Below are positions 5,652 through 57,359 of a stretch of DNA of 64,000 nucleotides, in pieces. Position 1 is the stretch's first letter. Each line of letters begins with the position of its first letter. The translations under genes were made by a program, and so were the position numbers. The stretch lies in sequence record PZ386972.1; one strand, given 5' to 3'. The DNA comes from a phage. The notes under the pieces were generated by a model. It saw only the letters and a program-made list of their open reading frames with translations, was not told the DNA's origin and ran no database searches.

Positions 5652-6164
5652 ATGCAAATCATCACAGCCGAAGATTATAGATTATATGGTGGTTTAAAAC
5701 GACCTGAATTAGAATCTGGTGTAGAAATGATGATTACTGCTGCCAATGCGCTGATCACGAGCCTTCTAGGCATGGATGATGCTGATGCGGTAGACCAGTT
5801 AATCAATACAAAACCTACACGTAGGAAATATTTTCTGAGCTCACCATCTGCTACCTCCGTAACTAAAGTGACGATTAACGATAATGAGATTGACCCAGAG
5901 CAGTATAAGCTATACTCTGATGGTATTATCCTTCTCAAATTTAATCCTCCAGAAGGTTATATGGATGTAGCATATACACAAGGTGGATTCAATCCAATAC
6001 CTGAAGATCTCAAACTTGCAGCATGTATGCTAGTAGATCATTGGCACAAACAAGATTATCGCCAAGCTAAAACAATTGGTGGTGAAACAGTAACCTTCAA
6101 TAATACTAAATCTGGTATTCCAGAGCATATTCGTACTATTATTGAAGTATATAGGAGAGTATAA
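5652..6164 (+). CDS. head completion / head-tail adaptor protein (putative)
   Basis: 170-aa ORF immediately downstream of capsid terminator in structural operon; assignment by synteny only. Confidence 0.45.
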   Translation: MQIITAEDYRLYGGLKRPELESGVEMMITAANALITSLLGMDDADAVDQLINTKPTRRKYFLSSPSATSVTKVTINDNEIDPEQYKLYSDGIILLKFNPPEGYMDVAYTQGGFNPIPEDLKLAACMLVDHWHKQDYRQAKTIGGETVTFNNTKSGIPEHIRTIIEVYRRV

Positions 6165-46997: not shown

Positions 46998-47390
46998 TCA
47001 TTCATCATTTAATCCTGGAACATAGATCCCAACACGATTTAATTGTTCTTTAGCTTCTGCGAGAATATCTGGAGTGTACTCCCAAATATCGTCTTCCACC
47101 TGTAAAAGATGGGAAGAACAACCATCATGCGGCACACGACATATGGCCAAACCACGTGGATGGAACAAAGAGAAATTTAGGGCAACAATTAAACCCATAG
47201 CAGACAACTCATTCCAATCCAACTCCCATTCCCCCGCGTAGCCGGATAGGAAAACACCAACACAGGGATCATCTATTTGCTGCTCCGGAAAAGTGAAGGA
47301 GGCTTGTCTTACCCCCAACCAACGTTGTAGCAGCTTCTCCGCACGTTTCACCAAACTAGGATCAATCTGACGCCAATATACTTGTTCCAT
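46998..47390 (-). CDS. hypothetical protein, tandem paralog A
   Basis: 130 aa; shares PCVG ... GEWELDWNELS.MGL..ALN..LF.P ... VPGL pattern with 47400-47828. Confidence 0.45.
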   Translation of the reverse strand: MEQVYWRQIDPSLVKRAEKLLQRWLGVRQASFTFPEQQIDDPCVGVFLSGYAGEWELDWNELSAMGLIVALNFSLFHPRGLAICRVPHDGCSSHLLQVEDDIWEYTPDILAEAKEQLNRVGIYVPGLNDE

Positions 47391-47399
47391 TCTGCCTCC

Positions 47400-47828
47400 T
47401 TAAGCAGTTAAACCTGGGATCATATACCCGAAACGTCGAAGTTTCTGAATCCCATCATTTACTTCTTCCGGTGAGTAAGACCAACCGTAACGTTCATTAA
47501 CCTGAAAACCAGGAGATTCACTAGTTTTATAGTTAACAACAAGGCGATGCTTAGCAGGCATAAACAGCTTATAGTTTAACGCAAAAACTAAGCCCATTTC
47601 ATCTAACTCTTTCCAGCCGACAATTTCTTCAAGACCCTCCTCTACCTGAACAATTAAACCAATACAGGGAGCCTCATCAATATCATCTTTAAAAGCAAAG
47701 GAGATTTCGTTATTCTCACACCATATTTTCAAAGAGTTAATAGCCTCATTATATAGGCTAGCTGGGAGAGTACGCCAAAAGTTAACCAAAATTGGGTTAG
47801 CTTCTTTAGAGAATACATTATTGAACAT
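47400..47828 (-). CDS. hypothetical protein, tandem paralog B
   Basis: 142 aa; paralogous to 46998-47390. Confidence 0.45.
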   Translation of the reverse strand: MFNNVFSKEANPILVNFWRTLPASLYNEAINSLKIWCENNEISFAFKDDIDEAPCIGLIVQVEEGLEEIVGWKELDEMGLVFALNYKLFMPAKHRLVVNYKTSESPGFQVNERYGWSYSPEEVNDGIQKLRRFGYMIPGLTA

Positions 47829-48506: not shown

Positions 48507-48682
48507 ACCTGTTTCTCCTCATCTCCAGAGGAGAACCACATATTATCCGTAGTATAGATAATTTTATATGTGTATCCCAACCGTTTTCTTACACTAGGAA
48601 ACCTGTAGGCAAACCTATAACACCAAGTGCCAGACTCAGTTATAAAAATATCCCATTCATTATTTCTTGCTTCTCGACACAT
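48497..48682 (-). CDS. small hypothetical protein (WCYR-motif paralog 2)
   Basis: 61 aa; DIFITESGTWCYR. Confidence 0.35.
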   Translation of the reverse strand: MCREARNNEWDIFITESGTWCYRFAYRFPSVRKRLGYTYKIIYTTDNMWFSSGDEEKQVCP

Positions 48683-49478
48683 AAGGTCTACCCTCTAAAT
48701 GAGCTTCTACACGAGCAATAAAATCAGGATCACTGAAAGCATCTACCGCACCCTTACTCCAATAAGGGATACTACGTTCTTCCAGCTGGTACATCTCACT
48801 ACGAGTCATACCCTGATAGCCTGGCTCCGCTGCTAGGGCACTATCATAGTAGTTAACTACCATAAATTTCGCAGCAGTCCTATTAAGAACAGGAAATAAT
48901 TCCCAGTAGAAGTTAATTACTTGGTTAGAGCAACCAACCACAACGATCATATCTTGGCTGGTAATACCATCAAAAACATTGTACATTTCTGCATATGCTG
49001 GAGCATGCTCTCCAAAGAAGATTACATTAGGTTTAACCCATTTATAATCATCTGGATCAATAGAAGTATATCCTACATCAATAACCAGTTTATTGCTACT
49101 ATTGTAGCTATCAGCTACAACAACCTCTTTTAAATATCCGTGAATGTGCAGAATGTCACTATGTGGAACGCCAGCACGCTCAATAAGGTCATCGACGTTG
49201 GTAGTCAAGTTTACTACTTGACCTGGATATTGTTTATACCATTCACCAATACGCAAATGCGCAAGATTGGGTTCAACAGTTTTTAGCTCTTCACGACGCT
49301 TGTTGTAAAACATATGGGTTTTATGATAAAAATTACCACGAAAGGCATGAATATTACATACTTCTTCTAGATCATAATCATCCCACAATGCTTTACCACT
49401 AGCAGTATCAGTACGAAAAGCTCGTACACCACTTTCAACACTCAAACCTGCACCGCTAATAATAATTAATCTACGCAT
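48660..49478 (-). CDS. Sir2-like (sirtuin family) NAD-dependent deacylase / ADP-ribosyltransferase, zinc-ribbon cysteines absent
   Basis: 272 aa; SGAGLSVESGVRAFR, TTNVDDL, HIHG catalytic His, VVVGCS align to sirtuin motifs; no CxxC pairs in the zinc-module region. Confidence 0.7.
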   Translation of the reverse strand: MRRLIIISGAGLSVESGVRAFRTDTASGKALWDDYDLEEVCNIHAFRGNFYHKTHMFYNKRREELKTVEPNLAHLRIGEWYKQYPGQVVNLTTNVDDLIERAGVPHSDILHIHGYLKEVVVADSYNSSNKLVIDVGYTSIDPDDYKWVKPNVIFFGEHAPAYAEMYNVFDGITSQDMIVVVGCSNQVINFYWELFPVLNRTAAKFMVVNYYDSALAAEPGYQGMTRSEMYQLEERSIPYWSKGAVDAFSDPDFIARVEAHLEGRPYVSRSKK

Positions 49479-49692
49479 TTTTCACCTGTTCTCTGAAGTT
49501 TTGCCCAATACTGTCTAATAGCTCAGCTAATTCTTTATTGCCTTTCTCCGTTAAGGTATTAGCAATAACTTCTAGCATAGTAGCGCAGGATTCAACACCG
49601 TCCTTATAGCCAGCTTCCCATTGCTGCATTAATGCGTTTTCCAAAGCAGCGTTTAAACCCTTATCTGGTAGCATCGGCTTCGAGAATGCCAT
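49471..49692 (-). CDS. hypothetical protein
   Basis: 73-aa ORF. Confidence 0.35.
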   Translation of the reverse strand: MAFSKPMLPDKGLNAALENALMQQWEAGYKDGVESCATMLEVIANTLTEKGNKELAELLDSIGQNFREQVKNA

Positions 49693-49879
49693 AAAGTTTC
49701 TCCTCTAGTTCCATAACACGATTTTCATAAGAGGCACGCAACTTTTCAATTGCCAGCGCACGCACTGTAACCTCATTAGAGTTAATAGCTAATTGGGCCA
49801 GATCTTCTGTTTCCATACGTCCGTTGTAAATTAAGCGATATTTAAGATGTTTTACATTCTTCATAGTTTCTCCTCTCAA
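49661..49879 (-). CDS. hypothetical protein
   Basis: 72-aa ORF downstream of promoter 49892-49920 with GAGAGGAGAAA RBS. Confidence 0.4.
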   Translation of the reverse strand: MRGETMKNVKHLKYRLIYNGRMETEDLAQLAINSNEVTVRALAIEKLRASYENRVMELEEKLYGILEADATR

Positions 49880-49891
49880 ATTTATAAATCA

Positions 49892-49920
49892 ATTATACAT
49901 AAGTTTTAGCTCGAAAGCAA
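49892..49920 (-). promoter_or_regulatory. early promoter (TTGCTT, 17 bp, TATAAT)
   Basis: read on minus strand. Confidence 0.6.
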
Positions 49921-49955
49921 ATAAAATAAAAGCCAGGTCGACTAGCAACCCGGCT
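49921..49955 (-). terminator. hairpin terminator after nrdD
   Basis: AGCCAGGT / ACCCGGCT imperfect stem followed by TTTTATTTTAT on minus strand. Confidence 0.5.
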
Positions 49956-49962
49956 GATTAGC

Positions 49963-51837
49963 TTATTTAGCTCGAATATCCTGATGTTTCACCCTACCCA
50001 TAACTTCATGTTGTTTGCCGGGGTTAAATGGACGAGCACCCGGATTTCCAAGATACCCACAAACTCGACGAGTTACTTCAAGAGTTTCTGGGTCATGATT
50101 ACCACAGATAGGGCACTTAAATCCATCTTCGGATGCTATTGTTTCACCTAAGAATCCACATTTACCACAAGAATCTACTGGAGTATTAATACCGAAGTAA
50201 TGAACCTTACTAGCAGCATAATTAATAACCCATTCGAGTGCATCTGGGAATCGTTTCATATCCGGTAGTTCTACATAGGAAATACACCCACCAGAAGCAA
50301 TCGGAGTAAAGTTAGATTCATAATCAAATTTCACGTTAGGAGCAACTTTACGTTCTACATCAAGGTGATGCGAGTTAGTATAGTATCCTTTGGACAGAAT
50401 ATCTTCATGCTCCGGGAAATATTCACGATCTAGACGACAAAAACGGTCACATAGGGACTCTGATGGTGTAGCATACAGGCTATAACCTAACTTAGTTTCT
50501 TCCTTCTTCTGATCTACCCTATCCCGCATGTACTGCAGTACACGCTGAACAAACTTGATGCAGGTCTCGGACATTGTGTCTATATCTTTGCCAAACATGA
50601 ACTGTAGCATTTCATGGCAACCAATATACCCTAGAGATACAGAAGCACGGTTATAGAAATGATCGAATACGTATTCATCAGGCTCCAAGCGCAGTCCAAA
50701 GGCTCCTGACATATAGAGGATGGGTGCAGCTTTAGCTTGAATGTATTTTAAGCGATCAACTCTCCACTCCAATGCTTTTAACGCTGTATCCACACGTAGC
50801 TCAAGCAAATCAAAGAATAGGTCAATATTTCCTTCAGCTTCGATAGCAATTCTAGGCAAGTTTACAGAAACAACACCTAAGTTATTACGACCGGCAGTTT
50901 CACCATCTTCTGTAGCAGCTAGGAATGAACGGCAGCCCATAGAAACTTTGTAGTCTCCAGTAACTTCTACAACTTTGTCATAGCTGATATAATCTGGATA
51001 CATACGTTCAGCAGTACATTTCATAGCTAACTTCTTGATGTCATAATTAACATCTCCTGGTTTCATATTTACGCCATCACGAAGCACAAATACCAGTTTC
51101 GGGAAGATAGCTGTACGTTTATTGATACCTAAACCATCCATGCGTACTTTCAGTATTGCTTTCTGTACTAGACGTGCTTCCCAAGAAGTTCCTAGACCAA
51201 AACCAAAGGTAATAAATGGACTCTGACCATTAGAGTTGAACATCGTATTGATTTCATACTCTAGACCCTGACAAGCATCATAGACTTCTTTTTCAGTCAT
51301 CTCCGTAGCCATTACTGATGCTTTGGCTTCATCCTTAGTCCAACGTTTTGCAAAGGCATGATTTTTGTCATAGGATTTACGAACATAAGGAGCTAATACC
51401 TCATCTAATCGGTCTACAGAAGTACCACCATACTGATGGGAGCTAACCTGTGTGATAATCTGAGCTGTAATAGCCGCCGCAGTAGTAATAGAGTTTGGAG
51501 TACTAATTTCAGCATTACCAACCTTCATACCATTCTTCAACATATCTTCCAGAGCTACCAGACAACAATTAGTCATGCCTAATGCAGCATAATCAGCATC
51601 ATGGAAATGAATATCCCCAATCATATGAGCATTTCGAATCTGAATTGGCATTTCTTCTAGAATCAGATACTTACTCAATTCACCTGCAAGCATATCCCTC
51701 TGTGTAGGGAAACGTTCTGAGGGTTTATTGGCATTATTAAACAGCAGCTCTTCATCTGCTGACCCTTCGATAATCTCTTTGCAGTTTCTAATTAACGCCT
51801 GCATTTCTTTATACTTTAGTTCTTCATTGCGATTCAT
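49963..51837 (-). CDS. nrdD: anaerobic ribonucleoside-triphosphate reductase (class III, glycyl radical)
   Basis: 624 aa; C-terminal RVCGYLG glycyl-radical motif and CxxC zinc ribbon (CGKCG ... CPICG). Confidence 0.9.
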   Translation of the reverse strand: MNRNEELKYKEMQALIRNCKEIIEGSADEELLFNNANKPSERFPTQRDMLAGELSKYLILEEMPIQIRNAHMIGDIHFHDADYAALGMTNCCLVALEDMLKNGMKVGNAEISTPNSITTAAAITAQIITQVSSHQYGGTSVDRLDEVLAPYVRKSYDKNHAFAKRWTKDEAKASVMATEMTEKEVYDACQGLEYEINTMFNSNGQSPFITFGFGLGTSWEARLVQKAILKVRMDGLGINKRTAIFPKLVFVLRDGVNMKPGDVNYDIKKLAMKCTAERMYPDYISYDKVVEVTGDYKVSMGCRSFLAATEDGETAGRNNLGVVSVNLPRIAIEAEGNIDLFFDLLELRVDTALKALEWRVDRLKYIQAKAAPILYMSGAFGLRLEPDEYVFDHFYNRASVSLGYIGCHEMLQFMFGKDIDTMSETCIKFVQRVLQYMRDRVDQKKEETKLGYSLYATPSESLCDRFCRLDREYFPEHEDILSKGYYTNSHHLDVERKVAPNVKFDYESNFTPIASGGCISYVELPDMKRFPDALEWVINYAASKVHYFGINTPVDSCGKCGFLGETIASEDGFKCPICGNHDPETLEVTRRVCGYLGNPGARPFNPGKQHEVMGRVKHQDIRAK

Positions 51838-51866
51838 TATACTCTCCTTCTCTAACTAAGACTACT

Positions 51867-51895
51867 ATTATAACTCATTCGAGGGCGGATGTCAA
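51867..51895 (-). promoter_or_regulatory. consensus sigma70 promoter for nrdD (TTGACA, 17 bp, TATAAT)
   Basis: perfect hexamers with 17-bp spacer read on minus strand; RBS GAAGGAGAG. Confidence 0.7.
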
Positions 51896-51922
51896 CAATA
51901 TTTTACTATAAAGTTCTGTAAC

Positions 51923-51936
51923 ATGATCTGAGTCAA
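51923..51936 (-). promoter_or_regulatory. FNR-like inverted repeat (TTGAC-N4-ATCAT) upstream of nrdD promoter
   Basis: 12 of 14 matches to TTGAT-N4-ATCAA; centred roughly 70 bp upstream of the inferred start site. Confidence 0.3.
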
Positions 51937-51946
51937 AAAATTTTAT

Positions 51947-51975
51947 TTGCCAATTTCTATTAAAAATTGTATAAT
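51947..51975 (+). promoter_or_regulatory. early promoter (TTGCCA, 17 bp, TATAAT), first of two upstream of phoH
   Basis: read directly; divergent from nrdD promoter. Confidence 0.5.
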
Positions 51976-53165: not shown

Positions 53166-53240
53166 GCTAAAAAGCTAGACTGGTAATATACAGGGCCTGG
53201 GTATGAAAATACTCGGGCCTTTTCTATCAGAAAATTTTAT

Positions 53241-53269
53241 TTGCCTAATGACCGATAATAAAGTAGAAT
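53241..53269 (+). promoter_or_regulatory. promoter (TTGCCT, 17 bp, TAGAAT) upstream of nrdA
   Basis: read directly. Confidence 0.45.
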
Positions 53270-53307
53270 ATTCCTTAAATCCTGATAACTATAAAAAGGA
53301 AAGCCAA

Positions 53308-55638
53308 ATGAGCCATCGCATTGAAAAAGTAATTAAACGTGACGGTACTGTAGAAGACTTTGCTCCTGAAAAACTCAATGGTTGGGCAGAGTATGGTTGC
53401 AAAACAGTTGATGTAAGTTGGTCCGCCATTACTATGGCTGCTCAAAAAACGCTACCTAAAGGGGTTGTAGATTCCGACACTCTGATGGACGCATTAATTA
53501 AAGCTGCTGAAAGTCTTATCAAAGATAACCCAGCATACGATGTGCCAGCAAAGGAATTACGTCTTGCGCAAATGCGTAAACGCCTTTATGACTCTTTCGA
53601 ACCGCCTTCTCTACGCTTCTTCCATGACCACATGGTTAGCGTAGGTGCATGGGAAGACATGAGTGCATGGATTACCGATGAGCAATTTGAAGCTCTGAAT
53701 CAGGTTATCGACCATGATCGTGACCGTCTTTTTACTAGTGGTGGGCTGAAGCAGTTCTTTGATAAGTATTCCCGTCGTAACATAGCCACTGGTGAAATTT
53801 ACGAAACTCCGCAGTTTGCCTACATGGGTATGGCAATGGCGATGCTATCTCAACCTAACTGGACAATTCTAGATGCAATCGACCTCTACAACGCAATGTC
53901 ACTCCACAAAATCAACGTTCCTACGCCGCCACTGGTTGGTCTGCGCTCTAGTGACCGTGGATTTGCTAGTTGCTGCCTCGTGGATTCCACTGACACGTTG
54001 GATTCAATCGACACCGCCGAGCACATCGTCTTCAAAATGGTCGCAGCCAGAGCGGGAATCGGGTATCATCTTGAAAGCCGATCAATTGCTGATCCGGTGC
54101 GAAATGGGGCATTCCCGCATTCCGGAAAACTGCCATATTATCGACACATTGACCGCTCAGTAAAGGCCAATACTCAGCAAACTCGTGGTGGTTCTGCTAC
54201 AGTATCTTATCCATACTTCGACCCTGAAATCATTCAATTGATGCAGGTTAAGCAACAACGTGCTACAGATGAGAATAAAATCGATAAGATGGATTATTCT
54301 CTGAGCTTTAACAACCTTTTGTTAAAACGTTATCTTAAAAACGAAGATATTACGCTAATGTCATACTTCTATGCTCCAGAAGTTCATGAAGCGTTTTATA
54401 GTGATGACGAGGCTAAATTTGAAGAAATCTACGTGGCAGCGGAGAAACGTGTGGCATCTCTTACAAAGATCGACCACGAAGGAAAAACAGTTCCTGCAGC
54501 TCCTAAAGTCTCTGCAAAAGAAATCCTAGATACTTGGCTACGTATCCGAATGGAAACAGGACGTATGTATGCTCACCACATTGGAGAATCTAATCGTCAC
54601 GGTAACTTCCTTGATCCGATCCGTATGACAAACCTTTGTGTTGAAATTACTCAGCCTACACGCCCGTTCCATCACATTACAGAGCTGTACAAGACAAAAG
54701 AGCAGCTTGATCAAATGAAGCCGGAGGATATTGGTGAAGTATCTCTGTGTAACTTAGGTGGTGTTGTACTTGGACGCATGGAATCTCTGGCTGAGTGGGA
54801 AAAAACTTGCTACATCCTTCTGAAATTTGTTGACACAATTATTGAAATTCAGGATTATCCGTTCCCAACTATGGAATATACGGCTAAGAAACGTCGTAAT
54901 GTTGGTATTGGCCTGATGAACGCAGCGGGTGCAATGGCAGCAGAAGGTCTGGCTTACGAAGGTATTGAAGCCCGTAACTGGATTCACCGTGAGGCTGAAA
55001 AACTGTCTTACTTCCTGCATAAAGCCTCTGTACGCCTGGCTAAAGAACAGGGTGCATGTGAGTGGTTTGATCGTACTAAACCATCTAAAGGAATTCTAGT
55101 AATCGACACGTATAAGAAAACTGTTGATGAACTGGTATCCGTAGGTCTAGAAATGGATTGGGAGTCTCTACGTGCAGATATTCTGAAATATGGTATGCGT
55201 AACTCTGTTCTGACTGCTCAGATGCCGGGAGAAAGTTCTTCTGTTCTGCTAGGAGTTACTAACTCTATTGAACCGCCTCGTAAGATTGTATCTATCAAGG
55301 GTAGTGCAGTGAATAAAGTAATTGCAATTGCTCCGGGTGCAACCGATTGGGAAACGTTAATGAGCTATAAACTGGCTTATGATGTAGATCGTATCGAGTG
55401 GATCAAATGGGTAGCAACTATGCAAAAATTCTTCAGTCAGTCTATCAGTACGAATATGTACTATGACTACACCAAGTTTGAGAATGAAATCATTCCTGGC
55501 CCAGTAGTAGTTCGTGATTTCATGACTGCTGTTAAGTATGGGTGGAAAACTTTCTACTATGCAAACTTCAATACCGCAAATGGTGGAGGTGCTGGAGAAG
55601 AAGCAGCCGGTTGTGCATCCGGTGGTTGTACTATTTAA
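53308..55638 (+). CDS. nrdA: ribonucleoside-diphosphate reductase alpha subunit (class Ia)
   Basis: ATP-cone VIKRDGTVEDF at N-terminus; C-terminal CASGGC; start at MSHRIEK after AAAAAGGAAAG, the six-frame ORF starts upstream at 53203. Confidence 0.9.
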   Translation: MSHRIEKVIKRDGTVEDFAPEKLNGWAEYGCKTVDVSWSAITMAAQKTLPKGVVDSDTLMDALIKAAESLIKDNPAYDVPAKELRLAQMRKRLYDSFEPPSLRFFHDHMVSVGAWEDMSAWITDEQFEALNQVIDHDRDRLFTSGGLKQFFDKYSRRNIATGEIYETPQFAYMGMAMAMLSQPNWTILDAIDLYNAMSLHKINVPTPPLVGLRSSDRGFASCCLVDSTDTLDSIDTAEHIVFKMVAARAGIGYHLESRSIADPVRNGAFPHSGKLPYYRHIDRSVKANTQQTRGGSATVSYPYFDPEIIQLMQVKQQRATDENKIDKMDYSLSFNNLLLKRYLKNEDITLMSYFYAPEVHEAFYSDDEAKFEEIYVAAEKRVASLTKIDHEGKTVPAAPKVSAKEILDTWLRIRMETGRMYAHHIGESNRHGNFLDPIRMTNLCVEITQPTRPFHHITELYKTKEQLDQMKPEDIGEVSLCNLGGVVLGRMESLAEWEKTCYILLKFVDTIIEIQDYPFPTMEYTAKKRRNVGIGLMNAAGAMAAEGLAYEGIEARNWIHREAEKLSYFLHKASVRLAKEQGACEWFDRTKPSKGILVIDTYKKTVDELVSVGLEMDWESLRADILKYGMRNSVLTAQMPGESSSVLLGVTNSIEPPRKIVSIKGSAVNKVIAIAPGATDWETLMSYKLAYDVDRIEWIKWVATMQKFFSQSISTNMYYDYTKFENEIIPGPVVVRDFMTAVKYGWKTFYYANFNTANGGGAGEEAAGCASGGCTI

Positions 55639-55684: not shown

Positions 55685-55713
55685 TTGCTAATCGCTACCA
55701 GATTTGCTATAAT
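55685..55713 (+). promoter_or_regulatory. early promoter (TTGCTA, 17 bp, TATAAT) directly abutting homing endonuclease ATG
   Basis: -10 hexamer ends 6 nt before ATG at 55720; implies leaderless or read-through expression. Confidence 0.55.
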
Positions 55714-55719
55714 ATTTAT

Positions 55720-56217
55720 ATGAAATTAACACAGAGTAGATTAAAAGAGCTAATCTCCTATGATCCTGAAACTGGTGAATTTACCTGGCTTCCAAGAAAA
55801 AATTTAGCAAAGCATTTATGGAACGCTAAAGCAGGAACCTACGATAAGCTAGGGTATCTTCGTATAAAAGTGGAAGGAGTTCAATACTTAGCTCATCGCC
55901 TAGCCTTCTTGTATATGACTGGAGAAATACCAGAAGGAAAAATTGACCATAAAGATACTAATCCGTCCAATTGTGCCTGGAATAATCTACGTGAAGCCAC
56001 GAGTTCCCAAAATTCTATGAACTCATGCGCAAGAGTGGATAACCAGCTTGGAATGAAAAATATTCGTGTAAAAGGCAATTCATTTCAGGTTAGGATAGGC
56101 AAAGACGGTAAATCTTATACAAAAACTTTAAAAACCATAGAAGAAGCTATAGAGTGGAGAGATACCAAACTACTAGAACTTCATGGGGACTTTGCAAACA
56201 ACGGAGAAGCTAAATGA
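55720..56217 (+). CDS. HNH-type homing endonuclease inserted between nrdA and nrdB
   Basis: 165 aa; YDPETGEFTWL and GKIDHKDTNPSNCAWNNL HNH_3-like core; paralog-like to 28940-29455. Confidence 0.7.
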   Translation: MKLTQSRLKELISYDPETGEFTWLPRKNLAKHLWNAKAGTYDKLGYLRIKVEGVQYLAHRLAFLYMTGEIPEGKIDHKDTNPSNCAWNNLREATSSQNSMNSCARVDNQLGMKNIRVKGNSFQVRIGKDGKSYTKTLKTIEEAIEWRDTKLLELHGDFANNGEAK

Positions 56218-57359
56218 CTACTTTACTTAACTTAGAATGGGATCATACTAACGCTGATCTTTTCCTCGGTGATTCTTTGGGTATCGCAGATTATGTGCGT
56301 GTGGCACATCCCGAACTGGAGCGATTAGCTCTGTTGCAGCGTTCCCAATTCTGGACTGAAACTGAAATTAGTCTTGAAGCTGATAAAAAGCAGTGGGGTA
56401 ATCTCCCGCGTGAAATTCAGGAAATTACACTCCTGAACTTAGCATGGCAAACTCAAACTGATTCCTTTATCAGTCGTGCCCCTGAAGCAGCTATTATGCC
56501 GCTTGTAAGTCGTCCAGAATTGGAAGGTATGCTCAAGCAGTGGAGCTACTTCGAAGATCTGCATAGCCGTGCATATAGTAATATTATTCGTAATGTGCTG
56601 ACTGATCCAGCAGAATTTATTGATTCTGTAACCAAAAACCAGGAAGCATTCGCACGCATCGCTGATTCTGTTGAACTATTCGATGAACTGTATCAGTTAG
56701 GTCAGTATTTCATCGCAGTACGCGATCATCGTGGTGACAATACATATCCAGAAACTGAGTTCCCTGAAGTTAAACGTGAAACTCAGGCTAAACTATTAGA
56801 CGCTTACTTTGCGATCTATGGTCTGGAAGCAATGCAGTTTTACGCATCCTTTGCATGTACCTTTGCATTAGCAGAGAACGATATTCTGCAAGGTATTGCT
56901 AAAAATCTGCAATTAATCGCTAAAGATGAAGCTCTGCACACTCAGATGTCCAAAGCAATCATCCAGATTATGTTCCAGCAGTTTGACAAAGATCTGGTGA
57001 ATGAAGCAGTGGCTAAAGCACCAGCACAGCTCCTGAAAACTCTGAAAACTGAAATTGAATGGGGTCATTTCATTTTCAAAGGTCGTAGTCTGATTGGCTT
57101 GAATGCAGAACTTCTAGAAGAATATCTGTACTTTGTGGGGCGTAATGCATTTATGCACATCGGTGTAGAATGGCCTAGTCATTTACCAGTAATCACCAAG
57201 AACCCCATTCCGTGGATCATGAACTGGCTGGATACCACTTCTTTACAGCCTGCTCCACAAGAAATCCAGATTGGTGCAGCATATCGTGTAGGTCAGGTAA
57301 CTGAGACCTCTACTGATACTCTGAAAGATCTGGGTAATGAATTTGGAGATTTCTTATGA
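56214..57359 (+). CDS. nrdB: ribonucleoside-diphosphate reductase beta subunit
   Basis: 381 aa; di-iron and tyrosyl radical region (EAMQFYASF...AKDEALH). Confidence 0.9.
   Translation: MTTLLNLEWDHTNADLFLGDSLGIADYVRVAHPELERLALLQRSQFWTETEISLEADKKQWGNLPREIQEITLLNLAWQTQTDSFISRAPEAAIMPLVSRPELEGMLKQWSYFEDLHSRAYSNIIRNVLTDPAEFIDSVTKNQEAFARIADSVELFDELYQLGQYFIAVRDHRGDNTYPETEFPEVKRETQAKLLDAYFAIYGLEAMQFYASFACTFALAENDILQGIAKNLQLIAKDEALHTQMSKAIIQIMFQQFDKDLVNEAVAKAPAQLLKTLKTEIEWGHFIFKGRSLIGLNAELLEEYLYFVGRNAFMHIGVEWPSHLPVITKNPIPWIMNWLDTTSLQPAPQEIQIGAAYRVGQVTETSTDTLKDLGNEFGDFL

Follow-up and report, generated by a model that had tools for sequence, protein, structure and literature searches.

Class III ribonucleotide reductase without a recognizable activase in a T5-like phage: probable activation by host NrdG

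The closest described counterpart of the gene considered here is nrdD of phage T5 (T5.099), which, as in our locus, has the divergent phoH-nrdA-nrdB genes on one side and small ORFs and a Sir2 gene on the other, carries the same promoter core and terminator, both annotated in NC_005859, and likewise lacks nrdG. T5, EPS7 and SPC35 were tabulated some time ago as nrdB-nrdA-nrdD without nrdG (Dwivedi et al., 2013). The arrangement of nrdD without nrdG is ordinary and already known. Meeting it again adds little, given a published catalogue entry from 2013 and a T5 record that already marks the promoter; the only new element is a host-type glycyl-loop segment in the phage enzyme. T4 provides a second comparison, as its NrdD also has no ATP-cone (605 aa against 624 aa here), is 49-50% identical to ours, shares the Zn ribbon and the glycyl radical site, and likewise occurs together with NrdAB of class Ia and a spare-part protein resembling GrcA. 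T4, however, encodes an NrdG that is 47% identical to that of E. coli, whereas no NrdG was found in the phage DNA analyzed here.

The enzymes of the hosts, E. coli and Salmonella, share 54% identity with the phage protein in the catalytic domain, have the identical loop RVCGYLG, and are nearly identical in the segment flanking it. The host gene differs in its ATP-cone, its co-transcription with nrdG, its FNR dependence and its repression by NrdR, all of which are missing from the phage gene. Upstream of host nrdDG there is a 9/10 FNR-type box, whereas NrdR boxes are lacking in the phage DNA analyzed (none near nrdD or nrdA at up to three mismatches). There is precedent for a phage glycyl-radical protein being activated by a radical-SAM enzyme of the host in T4 Y06I, the counterpart of E. 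coli YfiD/GrcA, which has a host-identical loop and is activated by host PFL-AE. The case proposed here is different, with NrdG in place of PFL-AE and a full reductase in place of a 14-kDa spare-part protein.

The DNA analyzed, which we call the window, comes from a T5-like phage (Tequintavirus), of which it covers the first 64 kb, and is 97.6% identical to Salmonella phage LmqsSP1. In it, nrdD, identified by Pfam as the catalytic subunit of a class III (anaerobic) ribonucleotide reductase, occupies 49963-51837 on the minus strand. A ribosome-binding site, AAGGAG, can be read from the sequence 6 nt 5' of the ATG (51844-51849, minus strand) and is invariant throughout our alignment A1. At the other end, a terminator scan and the sequence itself place a rho-independent terminator at 49921-49955 on the minus strand (a 10-bp stem with six GC pairs, then a T-tract), equivalent to the one annotated at 55694-55729 in the T5 record, so nrdD is monocistronic. 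Next to it the sequence offers a separate promoter, TTGCTT and TATAAT spaced by 17 nt (49892-49920, minus strand), for the small ORFs and the Sir2 gene, and the T5 record has a promoter at the equivalent position (55708-55782). The genes concerned, all on the minus strand, are two small ORFs of unassigned function, phrog_5236 (49661-49864, no cysteine) and phrog_5827 (49471-49692, 73 aa, one cysteine), and a 272-aa Sir2-family protein (48660-49478; Pfam SIR2, 1.9e-24) that is not an activase. The earlier note had listed the small ORFs as lying downstream of nrdD, but there is no shared operon since the terminator and a new promoter intervene; a transcription unit separate from nrdD is confirmed. 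The ORF it gave as 72 aa is present, but that length requires an upstream TTG, and the start is most likely the ATG at 49864, which gives 67 aa and fits both the ribosome-binding site and the annotation of a relative (the MT577844 homolog is 67 aa). T5 differs here, as its first ORF downstream of nrdD (T5.100) has 126 aa.

On the other side of nrdD, a divergent promoter-like site, TTGCCA-17-TATAAT (11/12 positions; 51947-51975, plus strand), points towards phoH, a direction in which the T5 record annotates promoters too. Beyond it on the plus strand lie the genes for the aerobic class Ia reductase, nrdA (53203-55638; Pfam Ribonuc_red_lgC, 2e-119) and nrdB (56214-57359; Ribonuc_red_sm, 5e-36), with an HNH homing-endonuclease ORF between them (55720-56217; HNH_3, 4e-16).

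The identification of nrdD as a minus-strand gene for a 624-aa class III enzyme holds up well. The protein matches Pfam NRDD (PF13597, 1.5e-172) over profile positions 2-562 of 562, that is, as a full-length domain, and Gly_radical (PF01228, 9.4e-23); its PDB matches are 9d3x and T4 NrdD (1h78). The catalytic motifs are intact: the predicted radical glycine is G594, within RVCGYLG at residues 591-597; the predicted thiyl cysteine is C302, in a GCRSF motif that starts at 301 and equivalent to C290 of T4; and the predicted Zn ligands are C557 and C560 (CGKC) and C575 and C578 (CPIC). Every intact T5-like locus keeps the finger-loop cysteine and the four Zn-ribbon cysteines, which align with the structures from T4 and S. 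thermophilus; the motif exceptions among T5-like loci are one disrupted copy (L027) and the Pectobacterium phages (My1-type), which read RVSGYLG. A Pfam search of the phage protein gave no match to the ATP-cone (PF03477), which E. coli NrdD has at residues 4-89 and which is found in most NrdDs although not in all. Against residues 113-705 of E. coli NrdD the phage protein is 54% identical. A closest cellular donor was sought, but we found no candidate above 54% identity among bacterial NrdDs, and a recent transfer from host to phage therefore cannot be claimed.

Is this gene still that of a working reductase? It might instead be a decaying remnant, or have a role that does not require the radical, such as nucleotide binding or titration of host NrdG. 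The T5 reference nrdD has an in-frame deletion of 50 aa (residues 392-441 of the window protein, which itself has no such deletion), and this, together with the disrupted L027 copy, implies that nrdD is dispensable at least in some settings; the functionality of incomplete RNR gene sets was also left undecided in the earlier survey (Dwivedi et al., 2013). Such decay is hard to reconcile with a dN/dS of 0.016-0.019 within Tequintavirus-type loci (about 0.02), and about 0.1 to a clade at 72% identity, or with the conservation of catalytic residues, Zn site and radical glycine across two subfamilies. Between T5 and the window, pN is 0.004 over the shared residues. The gene has also retained a dedicated strong promoter, a ribosome-binding site and a terminator. 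The dN/dS values point to strong purifying selection on nrdD, and we regard a non-reductase role as very unlikely.

If the enzyme works, something has to activate it. To our knowledge, all glycyl-radical activases are radical-SAM enzymes with a CX3CX2C motif. The earlier note had seen no such motif in the two small ORFs or the Sir2 ORF, and this is borne out and can be extended, as the motif is absent from every reading frame of the 64-kb window. The search that it suggested for a radical-SAM activase elsewhere was likewise negative, for the window and for three completely sequenced Demerecviridae (LmqsSP1, T5 and My1): tblastn with the NrdGs of E. coli, T4 and L030 (a phage locus with nrdDG) and with E. 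coli PflA returned nothing at E ≤ 1, and the best match to an NrdG profile had E = 0.57. For the part of this phage beyond its first 64 kb, absence of an activase is inferred from LmqsSP1, at 97.6% identity. The variant Fe-S motifs CX2CX4C, CX4CX2C, CX5CX2C and CX3CX3C occur in the window and close relatives only in out-of-frame ORFs that overlap known genes; one 115-aa ORF of My1 has a variant motif and shows no similarity to NrdG or PflA. A search up to 6 kb from nrdD gave no nrdG in any of 26 T5-like loci; in all nine cellular relatives tested, nrdG lies directly downstream of nrdD. We also considered ICP1 as a sister lineage that had retained nrdG and rejected it, as the NrdDs of ICP1 and the window share only 28% identity.

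A phage activase could still be present among the unannotated early genes if it were too divergent to recognize or not a radical-SAM enzyme, and many early ORFs of T5-like phages are indeed without known function. One of these is T5.055 and its LmqsSP1 homolog (77950-78264, outside the window), which has a C-x-C-x-C-x-x-C motif and directly follows the gene for a GrcA-like glycyl-radical protein. At 103-104 aa, however, with a basic N-terminus, an acidic tail, no Pfam match and E = 0.57 against the NrdG profile, it does not reach the length of the NrdG (154-156 aa) and PflA (246 aa) activases used for comparison, and its CxCxCxxCGNPRK resembles a small Zn-binding protein. My1, moreover, keeps nrdD yet has no protein with this motif, and a non-radical-SAM activase would be unlike any known so far. 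We reject T5.055 as an unlikely activase, and consider a cryptic phage activase of any kind highly improbable.

The remaining source is the host, and here the loop around the radical glycine is instructive. A review names the Gly-loop sequence as one determinant of activase specificity. The phage heptamer RVCGYLG is that of E. coli NrdD, while T4, with an NrdG of its own, has RTCGYLG. Over a 34-residue Gly segment, the phage protein is 74% identical to the NrdDs of E. coli, Zophobihabitans and Shewanella and 47-53% identical to those of Lactobacillales, compared with 51-54% and 45-49%, respectively, for the whole protein; the corresponding segment of T4 is 53% identical to E. coli, and nowhere else does the window NrdD surpass T4 NrdD in resemblance to E. 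coli by so wide a margin. When segment identity is divided by whole-protein identity, the ratio among the coliphages compared is highest, at 1.32-1.41, for the two without nrdG, against 0.90-1.25 for nrdG carriers, in a comparison that involves few sequences and ignores kinship among the phages. The Gly segment of the phage enzyme thus appears to be of the gammaproteobacterial host type, and coliphages that carry nrdG appear less host-like there.

Taken together, the absence of an activase, the purifying selection and the host-type Gly segment make host NrdG the best account of activation. Our preferred explanation, to which we assign a probability of roughly 0.7, is that nrdD is an early monocistronic gene whose product is activated by host NrdG, with oxygen dependence exerted post-translationally and not through FNR; that NrdG specifically is the activator is something we infer from sequence comparison. 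In outline, host sigma-70 RNA polymerase would transcribe nrdD early from a perfect-consensus promoter, the mRNA ending at the gene's own terminator, and large amounts of the ATP-cone-less NrdD would be made whatever the oxygen level. The protein would stay inactive as long as G594 carries no glycyl radical, and since the phage encodes no radical-SAM activase, the radical would be installed by host NrdG, using SAM and reduced flavodoxin. NrdG would act catalytically, and it is known to leave NrdD after activation, which then turns over alone. As the host nrdDG operon is FNR-dependent, NrdG would be available only in cells that had been anaerobic beforehand, so that its availability, together with the oxygen sensitivity of the radical, would make the dependence on oxygen post-translational and independent of FNR at the phage promoter. 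T5 degrades host DNA early in infection, which would leave only the NrdG made before infection as usable. In air, the phage class Ia NrdAB would supply dNTPs; in anoxic hosts, NrdD would take over. We found no paper on a test of NrdD activation in any T5-like phage.

Some observations run counter to activation by host NrdG, the early loss of host DNA in T5 infection being one. T4 NrdD is closer overall to E. coli NrdD (59%) than is the window NrdD (about 52-53%), yet T4 has kept its own NrdG, from which it follows that overall likeness to the host is by itself no predictor of cross-activation. T4 NrdD expressed in E. coli reportedly requires T4 NrdG. Also, the My1-type loop, RVSGYLG, differs by one residue from that of the host.

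The serine of this My1-type loop, which is PFL-like, is among the reasons to ask whether a different host activase, PflA or a paralog, might act on phage NrdD. PflA is abundant in anaerobic cells, and T5 and LmqsSP1 appear to depend on it already: neither has pflA, and both carry, outside the window, a GrcA-like gene whose product bears the host loop RVSGYAV. E. coli PFL-AE, however, radicalizes an RVSGYAV peptide and not RVCGYLG, the exact loop of the phage NrdD, so that PflA strikes us as a scarcely credible activator here.

The promoter that the earlier note had described upstream of nrdD is real: a sigma-70 promoter like those of T5 early genes, on the minus strand (51867-51895), with TTGACA (51895-51890), a 17-nt spacer and TATAAT (51872-51867), it is the one perfect match (12/12 positions) to TTGACA-17-TATAAT in the 64-kb window, where 0.02 would be expected, and one of six sites with at most one mismatch, against 0.83 expected. 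It is conserved in the family, being found directly 5' of nrdD in 24 of 26 T5-like loci, T5 and My1 type included (L016 and L026 have other sequence there), and in the T5 record an annotated promoter (53884-53958) occupies the equivalent place directly 5' of nrdD.

Upstream of it, flanked by the -35 element of the nrdD promoter and that of the divergent promoter on the phoH side, lies the sequence TTGACtcagATCAT (51923-51936, minus strand), in which TTGAC-tcag-ATCAT matches an FNR site at 8/10 positions. The earlier note had proposed that this box resembles an FNR site and would allow anaerobic control. The box is present as described, from 51936 to 51923, but a match of this quality is no better than chance: with up to two mismatches to TTGAT-N4-ATCAA, the window contains 70 sites, against 62.6 ± 7.7 expected. 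The idea that FNR does act here, and that anaerobiosis thereby induces nrdD transcription, nevertheless has points in its favor. The TTGA-N6-TCA core is present; two relatives have 9/10 matches, TTGACtcagATCAA in L014 and TTGACtaaaATCAA in L017; the ATCA core is invariant and constantly 27 nt from the -35 element in alignment A1; and the host nrdDG promoter, which bears TTGAGctacATCAA, is FNR-dependent. FNR sites are centered at -41.5 in class II promoters and at -61.5 or -71.5 in class I. The center of the box, 51929.5, is at about -67 to -71 from the likely start (taken as 5-9 nt past the -10 element), and thus is estimated to fall between the preferred class I positions, although the true center could be near the workable -71.5, the start site being a prediction.

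Other variants among relatives weigh on the other side. The 8/10 match is that of the window group, and in T5 and five further loci (L010-L012, L024 and L031) the box is reduced to 7/10, as TTAGC-N4-ATCAA, with the key G lost; upstream of the -35, the window and T5 carry different sequence variants. In My1-type loci, no FNR-like box is found upstream of nrdD. A real FNR-type phage nrdDG promoter, that of L030, looks different, with a perfect TTGATtttaATCAA and an nrdG gene. Defective core elements are the norm in promoters that depend on an activator. The core of the nrdD promoter, by contrast, matches the consensus perfectly and has AT-rich sequence upstream, as the constitutive early promoters of T5 do, and so should need no activator. 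With a chance-level box that has decayed in T5 and is placed 5' of such a promoter, anaerobic control by FNR is not supported, and we judge it decidedly unlikely. Another candidate element, an ArcA-like TGTTA-N6-TGTTA repeat, precedes nrdD in all six divergent loci, but was rejected as a signal, as it occurs 11 times across the My1 genome against 13.6 expected and the window has none upstream of nrdD.

If host NrdG is indeed the activator, T5-like phages need a specific host protein for anaerobic synthesis of DNA precursors. These phages are common candidates for therapy in the gut and in food safety, and a dependence on NrdG would matter for their performance in the anoxic gut, where it would also offer the host a possible route to resistance. 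It is tempting to go further and suppose both that T5-like phages shed their activase by keeping the activase-recognition segment of NrdD matched to the host, so that replication in the gut and other anoxic habitats would depend on host nrdG, and that the element about 68 bp upstream of the start is a real site for a host redox regulator; as a pair, these suppositions are unlikely to hold. On the first, the remainder of NrdD is about equally distant from the gammaproteobacterial and the lactobacillal enzymes. On the second, the element takes the form of FNR-like half-sites in Tequintavirus and of the ArcA-like TGTTA-N6-TGTTA in My1-type and related loci.

The nrdD gene of the window (49963-51837, minus strand) encodes a 624-residue protein that matches the entire Pfam NRDD profile (1.5e-172) as well as Gly_radical, and that contains the finger-loop cysteine (C302, in GCRSF), the Zn ligands C557, C560, C575 and C578, and the radical loop RVCGYLG with G594. 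Its closest solved structures are a 734-residue NrdD (PDB 9d3x) and T4 NrdD (1h78); it is 49-50% identical to T4 NrdD and 54% identical to residues 113-705 of E. coli NrdD, but a Pfam search finds in it no ATP-cone, which in the E. coli enzyme occupies residues 4-89. The three motifs are kept across the recovered intact T5-like loci, the one exception being a radical loop RVSGYLG in two Pectobacterium-phage loci. For nrdD copies of the Tequintavirus type, between which dS reaches 0.68, pairwise dN/dS is 0.016-0.019; against the clade at 72% identity it is ~0.1. Together, the low dN/dS and the conserved motifs indicate that nrdD is maintained for a function that uses its catalytic apparatus.

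The 3.6 kb around this locus match 458 phage records; the best of these, 97.6% identical and with nearly equal coordinates, is Salmonella phage vB_StyS-LmqsSP1 (MT577844; Demerecviridae, Tequintavirus). As the two sequences are also collinear from the terminase gene on, the window represents the first 64 kb of a ~110-kb T5-like genome, and its nrdD unit is the known, T5.099-type one.

The consensus promoter described in the earlier note is borne out: TTGACA (51895-51890) and TATAAT (51872-51867), separated by 17 nt on the minus strand and followed by an AAGGAG ribosome-binding site and ATG, form the sole perfect match in the window, where 0.02 are expected. Sites with at most one mismatch number six (0.83 expected), a signature of T5 early promoters. 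In 24 of 26 T5-like loci, those of T5 and of the Pectobacterium-type phages at 72% identity among them, the core promoter lies directly 5' of nrdD. Existing annotation of T5 in RefSeq places a promoter immediately before nrdD, a rho-independent terminator immediately after it, and another promoter for the downstream genes. The same terminator is found here (stem 49955-49931 and T-tract, minus strand), followed by TTGCTT-17-TATAAT (49920-49892, minus strand), and nrdD is thus monocistronic. The two small ORFs and the Sir2 gene, taken in the earlier note as downstream partners, therefore belong to a separate unit rather than being co-transcribed with it; the small ORFs fall in PHROG families of unknown function and contain no cysteine and one cysteine, respectively.

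That no nrdG accompanies nrdD also holds, and it holds beyond the locus. There is no CxxxCxxC motif in any frame of the window and no nrdG within 6 kb of nrdD in any of the 26 T5-like loci. In tblastn searches with the NrdG proteins of E. coli, T4 and a metagenomic phage and with E. coli PflA, the activase of pyruvate formate-lyase (PFL), nothing was returned at E <= 1 from the window or from three complete genomes (LmqsSP1, T5 and My1, a Pectobacterium phage of a different subfamily), and in these same sequences the best hit of an NrdG profile was at E = 0.57. NrdG homologs are nevertheless readily detectable, as tblastn with E. coli NrdG hits 2,273 other phage records; among the matches listed are T4-like and Felix O1-like phages. 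In the sole non-T5-like locus recovered (L030) and in 9/9 cellular relatives examined, nrdG lies immediately 3' of nrdD. The arrangement in T5-like phages is already known: nrdD and nrdAB without nrdG have been reported for many phages, with T5, EPS7 and SPC35 listed as nrdB-nrdA-nrdD, and it was considered unknown whether such incomplete sets function (Dwivedi et al., 2013, and Table S1 therein).

How, then, might the phage enzyme be activated? The most economical answer would be host NrdG, for which four lines of evidence are suggestive, if not decisive. The first is that nrdD is under strong purifying selection although the lineage is without an activase throughout, and that the recorded hosts of T5-like phages are enteric facultative anaerobes; nrdDG is present in E. 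coli and, according to the literature, in Salmonella. The second is availability: NrdG is reported to act catalytically and to depart from NrdD once it is activated, so that pre-existing host NrdG could serve many phage NrdD molecules. The third is that the part of NrdD recognized by the activase is of the host type. According to a recent review, activase specificity is governed by the Gly-loop sequence, and in the known cases of cross-activation the loops are identical or nearly so; the window heptamer is that of E. coli NrdD, whereas T4, which has its own nrdG, has the divergent RTCGYLG. The surrounding 34-residue segment is 74% identical to the E. coli, Zophobihabitans and Shewanella proteins and 47-53% to those of Lactobacillales, although the whole protein is almost equidistant from them (51-54% versus 45-49%), and in a sliding-window comparison the margin by which window NrdD is more similar than T4 NrdD to the E. 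coli protein is widest here. Among the coliphages compared, a small sample taken without phylogenetic control, the ratio of segment to whole-protein identity is highest in the two nrdG-less NrdDs (1.32-1.41), against 0.90-1.25 in five E. coli phages that carry nrdG themselves, plus L030 and ICP1. The fourth is precedent, as host PFL-AE activates the small T4 glycyl-radical protein Y06I; the GrcA-like gene of T5 and LmqsSP1 (see below), likewise unaccompanied by pflA, belongs with it. A counterpoint is that T4 NrdD is overall nearer to the host enzyme, yet T4 has its own NrdG. The reliance on a host activase proposed in the earlier note is thus a reasonable idea and has somewhat more support than before. 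We found no experiments on T5-like NrdD in the literature. Under anoxia, host nrdG may be a dependency factor of T5-like phages.

Anaerobic control through FNR, by contrast, is not supported. The FNR-like box is present (51936-51923, minus strand; TTGACtcagATCAT, 8/10 of the consensus), but the window holds 70 matches of this grade, where 62.6 +/- 7.7 are expected. At its position two relatives have TTGAC-N4-ATCAA (9/10), T5 and five other loci have TTAGC-N4-ATCAA (7/10), in which the G of TTGAT is lost, and the 72%-identity clade has unrelated sequence. The ATCA core is invariant, at a constant 27 nt from the -35 element, in an alignment of upstream regions, so some constraint on it is conceivable, but the alignment comprises seven closely related sequences and has little power. 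The center of the box would lie ~67-70 bp 5' of the predicted start site and fall between the positions preferred in class I, and activator dependence is not expected where the promoter is a perfect consensus and the sequence upstream of it AT-rich. The host nrdDG region carries TTGAGctacATCAA; the host operon, with an ATP-cone, co-transcribed nrdG, and FNR and NrdR control, differs in all these respects from the window unit, where no NrdR boxes were found. Apart from the chance-level FNR-like box and the co-transcription of the downstream ORFs, the observation in the earlier note is accurate. Oxygen control is more simply explained as acting after translation: the NrdD radical would form only where host NrdG exists, in an FNR-induced, already anaerobic cell, and would be destroyed by oxygen.

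An example of a phage nrdDG unit of the FNR type, derived from a host, is L030 (5870-8240; metagenomic viral contig IMGVR_UViG_3300008488_000004), whose nrdD is 72% identical to that of E. coli, adjoins nrdG and is preceded by a perfect FNR consensus, TTGATtttaATCAA (TTGATTTTAATCAA). All divergent T5-like phages (My1, DU_PP_V and others) have a TGTTA-N6-TGTTA direct repeat ~33 nt 5' of the -35 element (L020-L023, L032 and L033, ~90-130 nt 5' of nrdD; e.g. L021 5913-5928). Its 11-bp spacing resembles ArcA sites, and it is the sole such match in most of these 13.8-kb loci, while genome-wide in My1 it occurs at chance frequency.

Several relatives carry variant nrdD copies. Compared with the window and with the majority of wild T5-like isolates, reference T5 NrdD (NC_005859 53961-55685; L035 8961-10685) has an in-frame 50-residue deletion, corresponding to window residues 392-441, and is 574 residues long; the anaerobic gene may be decaying in what is a laboratory strain under aerobic culture. 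One IMG/VR T5-like genome (L027 6001-7969) has a disrupted nrdD, with a break in the frame close to residue 430 and a matching stretch that exceeds those of the other loci by ~97 nt. In L016 and L026 the NrdD N-terminus is divergent, other coding sequence abuts nrdD (5875-6040), different sequence replaces the consensus promoter directly 5', and dN/dS reaches 0.11-0.13.

Outside the stretch covered by the window, T5 (T5.056, NC_005859 27656-28024) and LmqsSP1 (MT577844 77500-77868; L002 17500-17868), though not My1, also encode a 122-residue GrcA/YfiD-like autonomous glycyl-radical protein, which is wrongly annotated as '2-ketobutyrate formate-lyase' or as 'acetyltransferase-related'. Its loop, RVSGYAV, is that of the host, it is 80% identical to the C-terminus of PflB, and neither genome has pflA; it could keep up the supply of formate from PFL, which class III reductases use as reductant. 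Directly 3', likewise outside the window, is a gene for a small basic protein of 103-104 residues (T5.055, NC_005859 27263-27574; L002 17950-18264) with the motif C-I-C-S-C-W-M-C-GNPRK; it has no Pfam match and belongs to phrog_4499, which assigns no function.

In the window's class Ia NrdA (53203-55638, plus strand; 811 residues), ~175 residues precede the all-alpha domain and a Pfam search gives no ATP-cone match; both phage reductases, NrdD and NrdA, may escape dATP feedback inhibition. An HNH homing-endonuclease ORF (55720-56217, plus strand; HNH_3, 4.4e-16) separates nrdA from nrdB, as hegH does in T5, whereas in LmqsSP1 nrdB directly follows nrdA. Finally, two tandem paralogous ORFs of 130 and 142 residues (46998-47828, minus strand), each matching DUF7415 twice, are labeled 'tail tube protein' in MT577844, which looks wrong given their early-region location.
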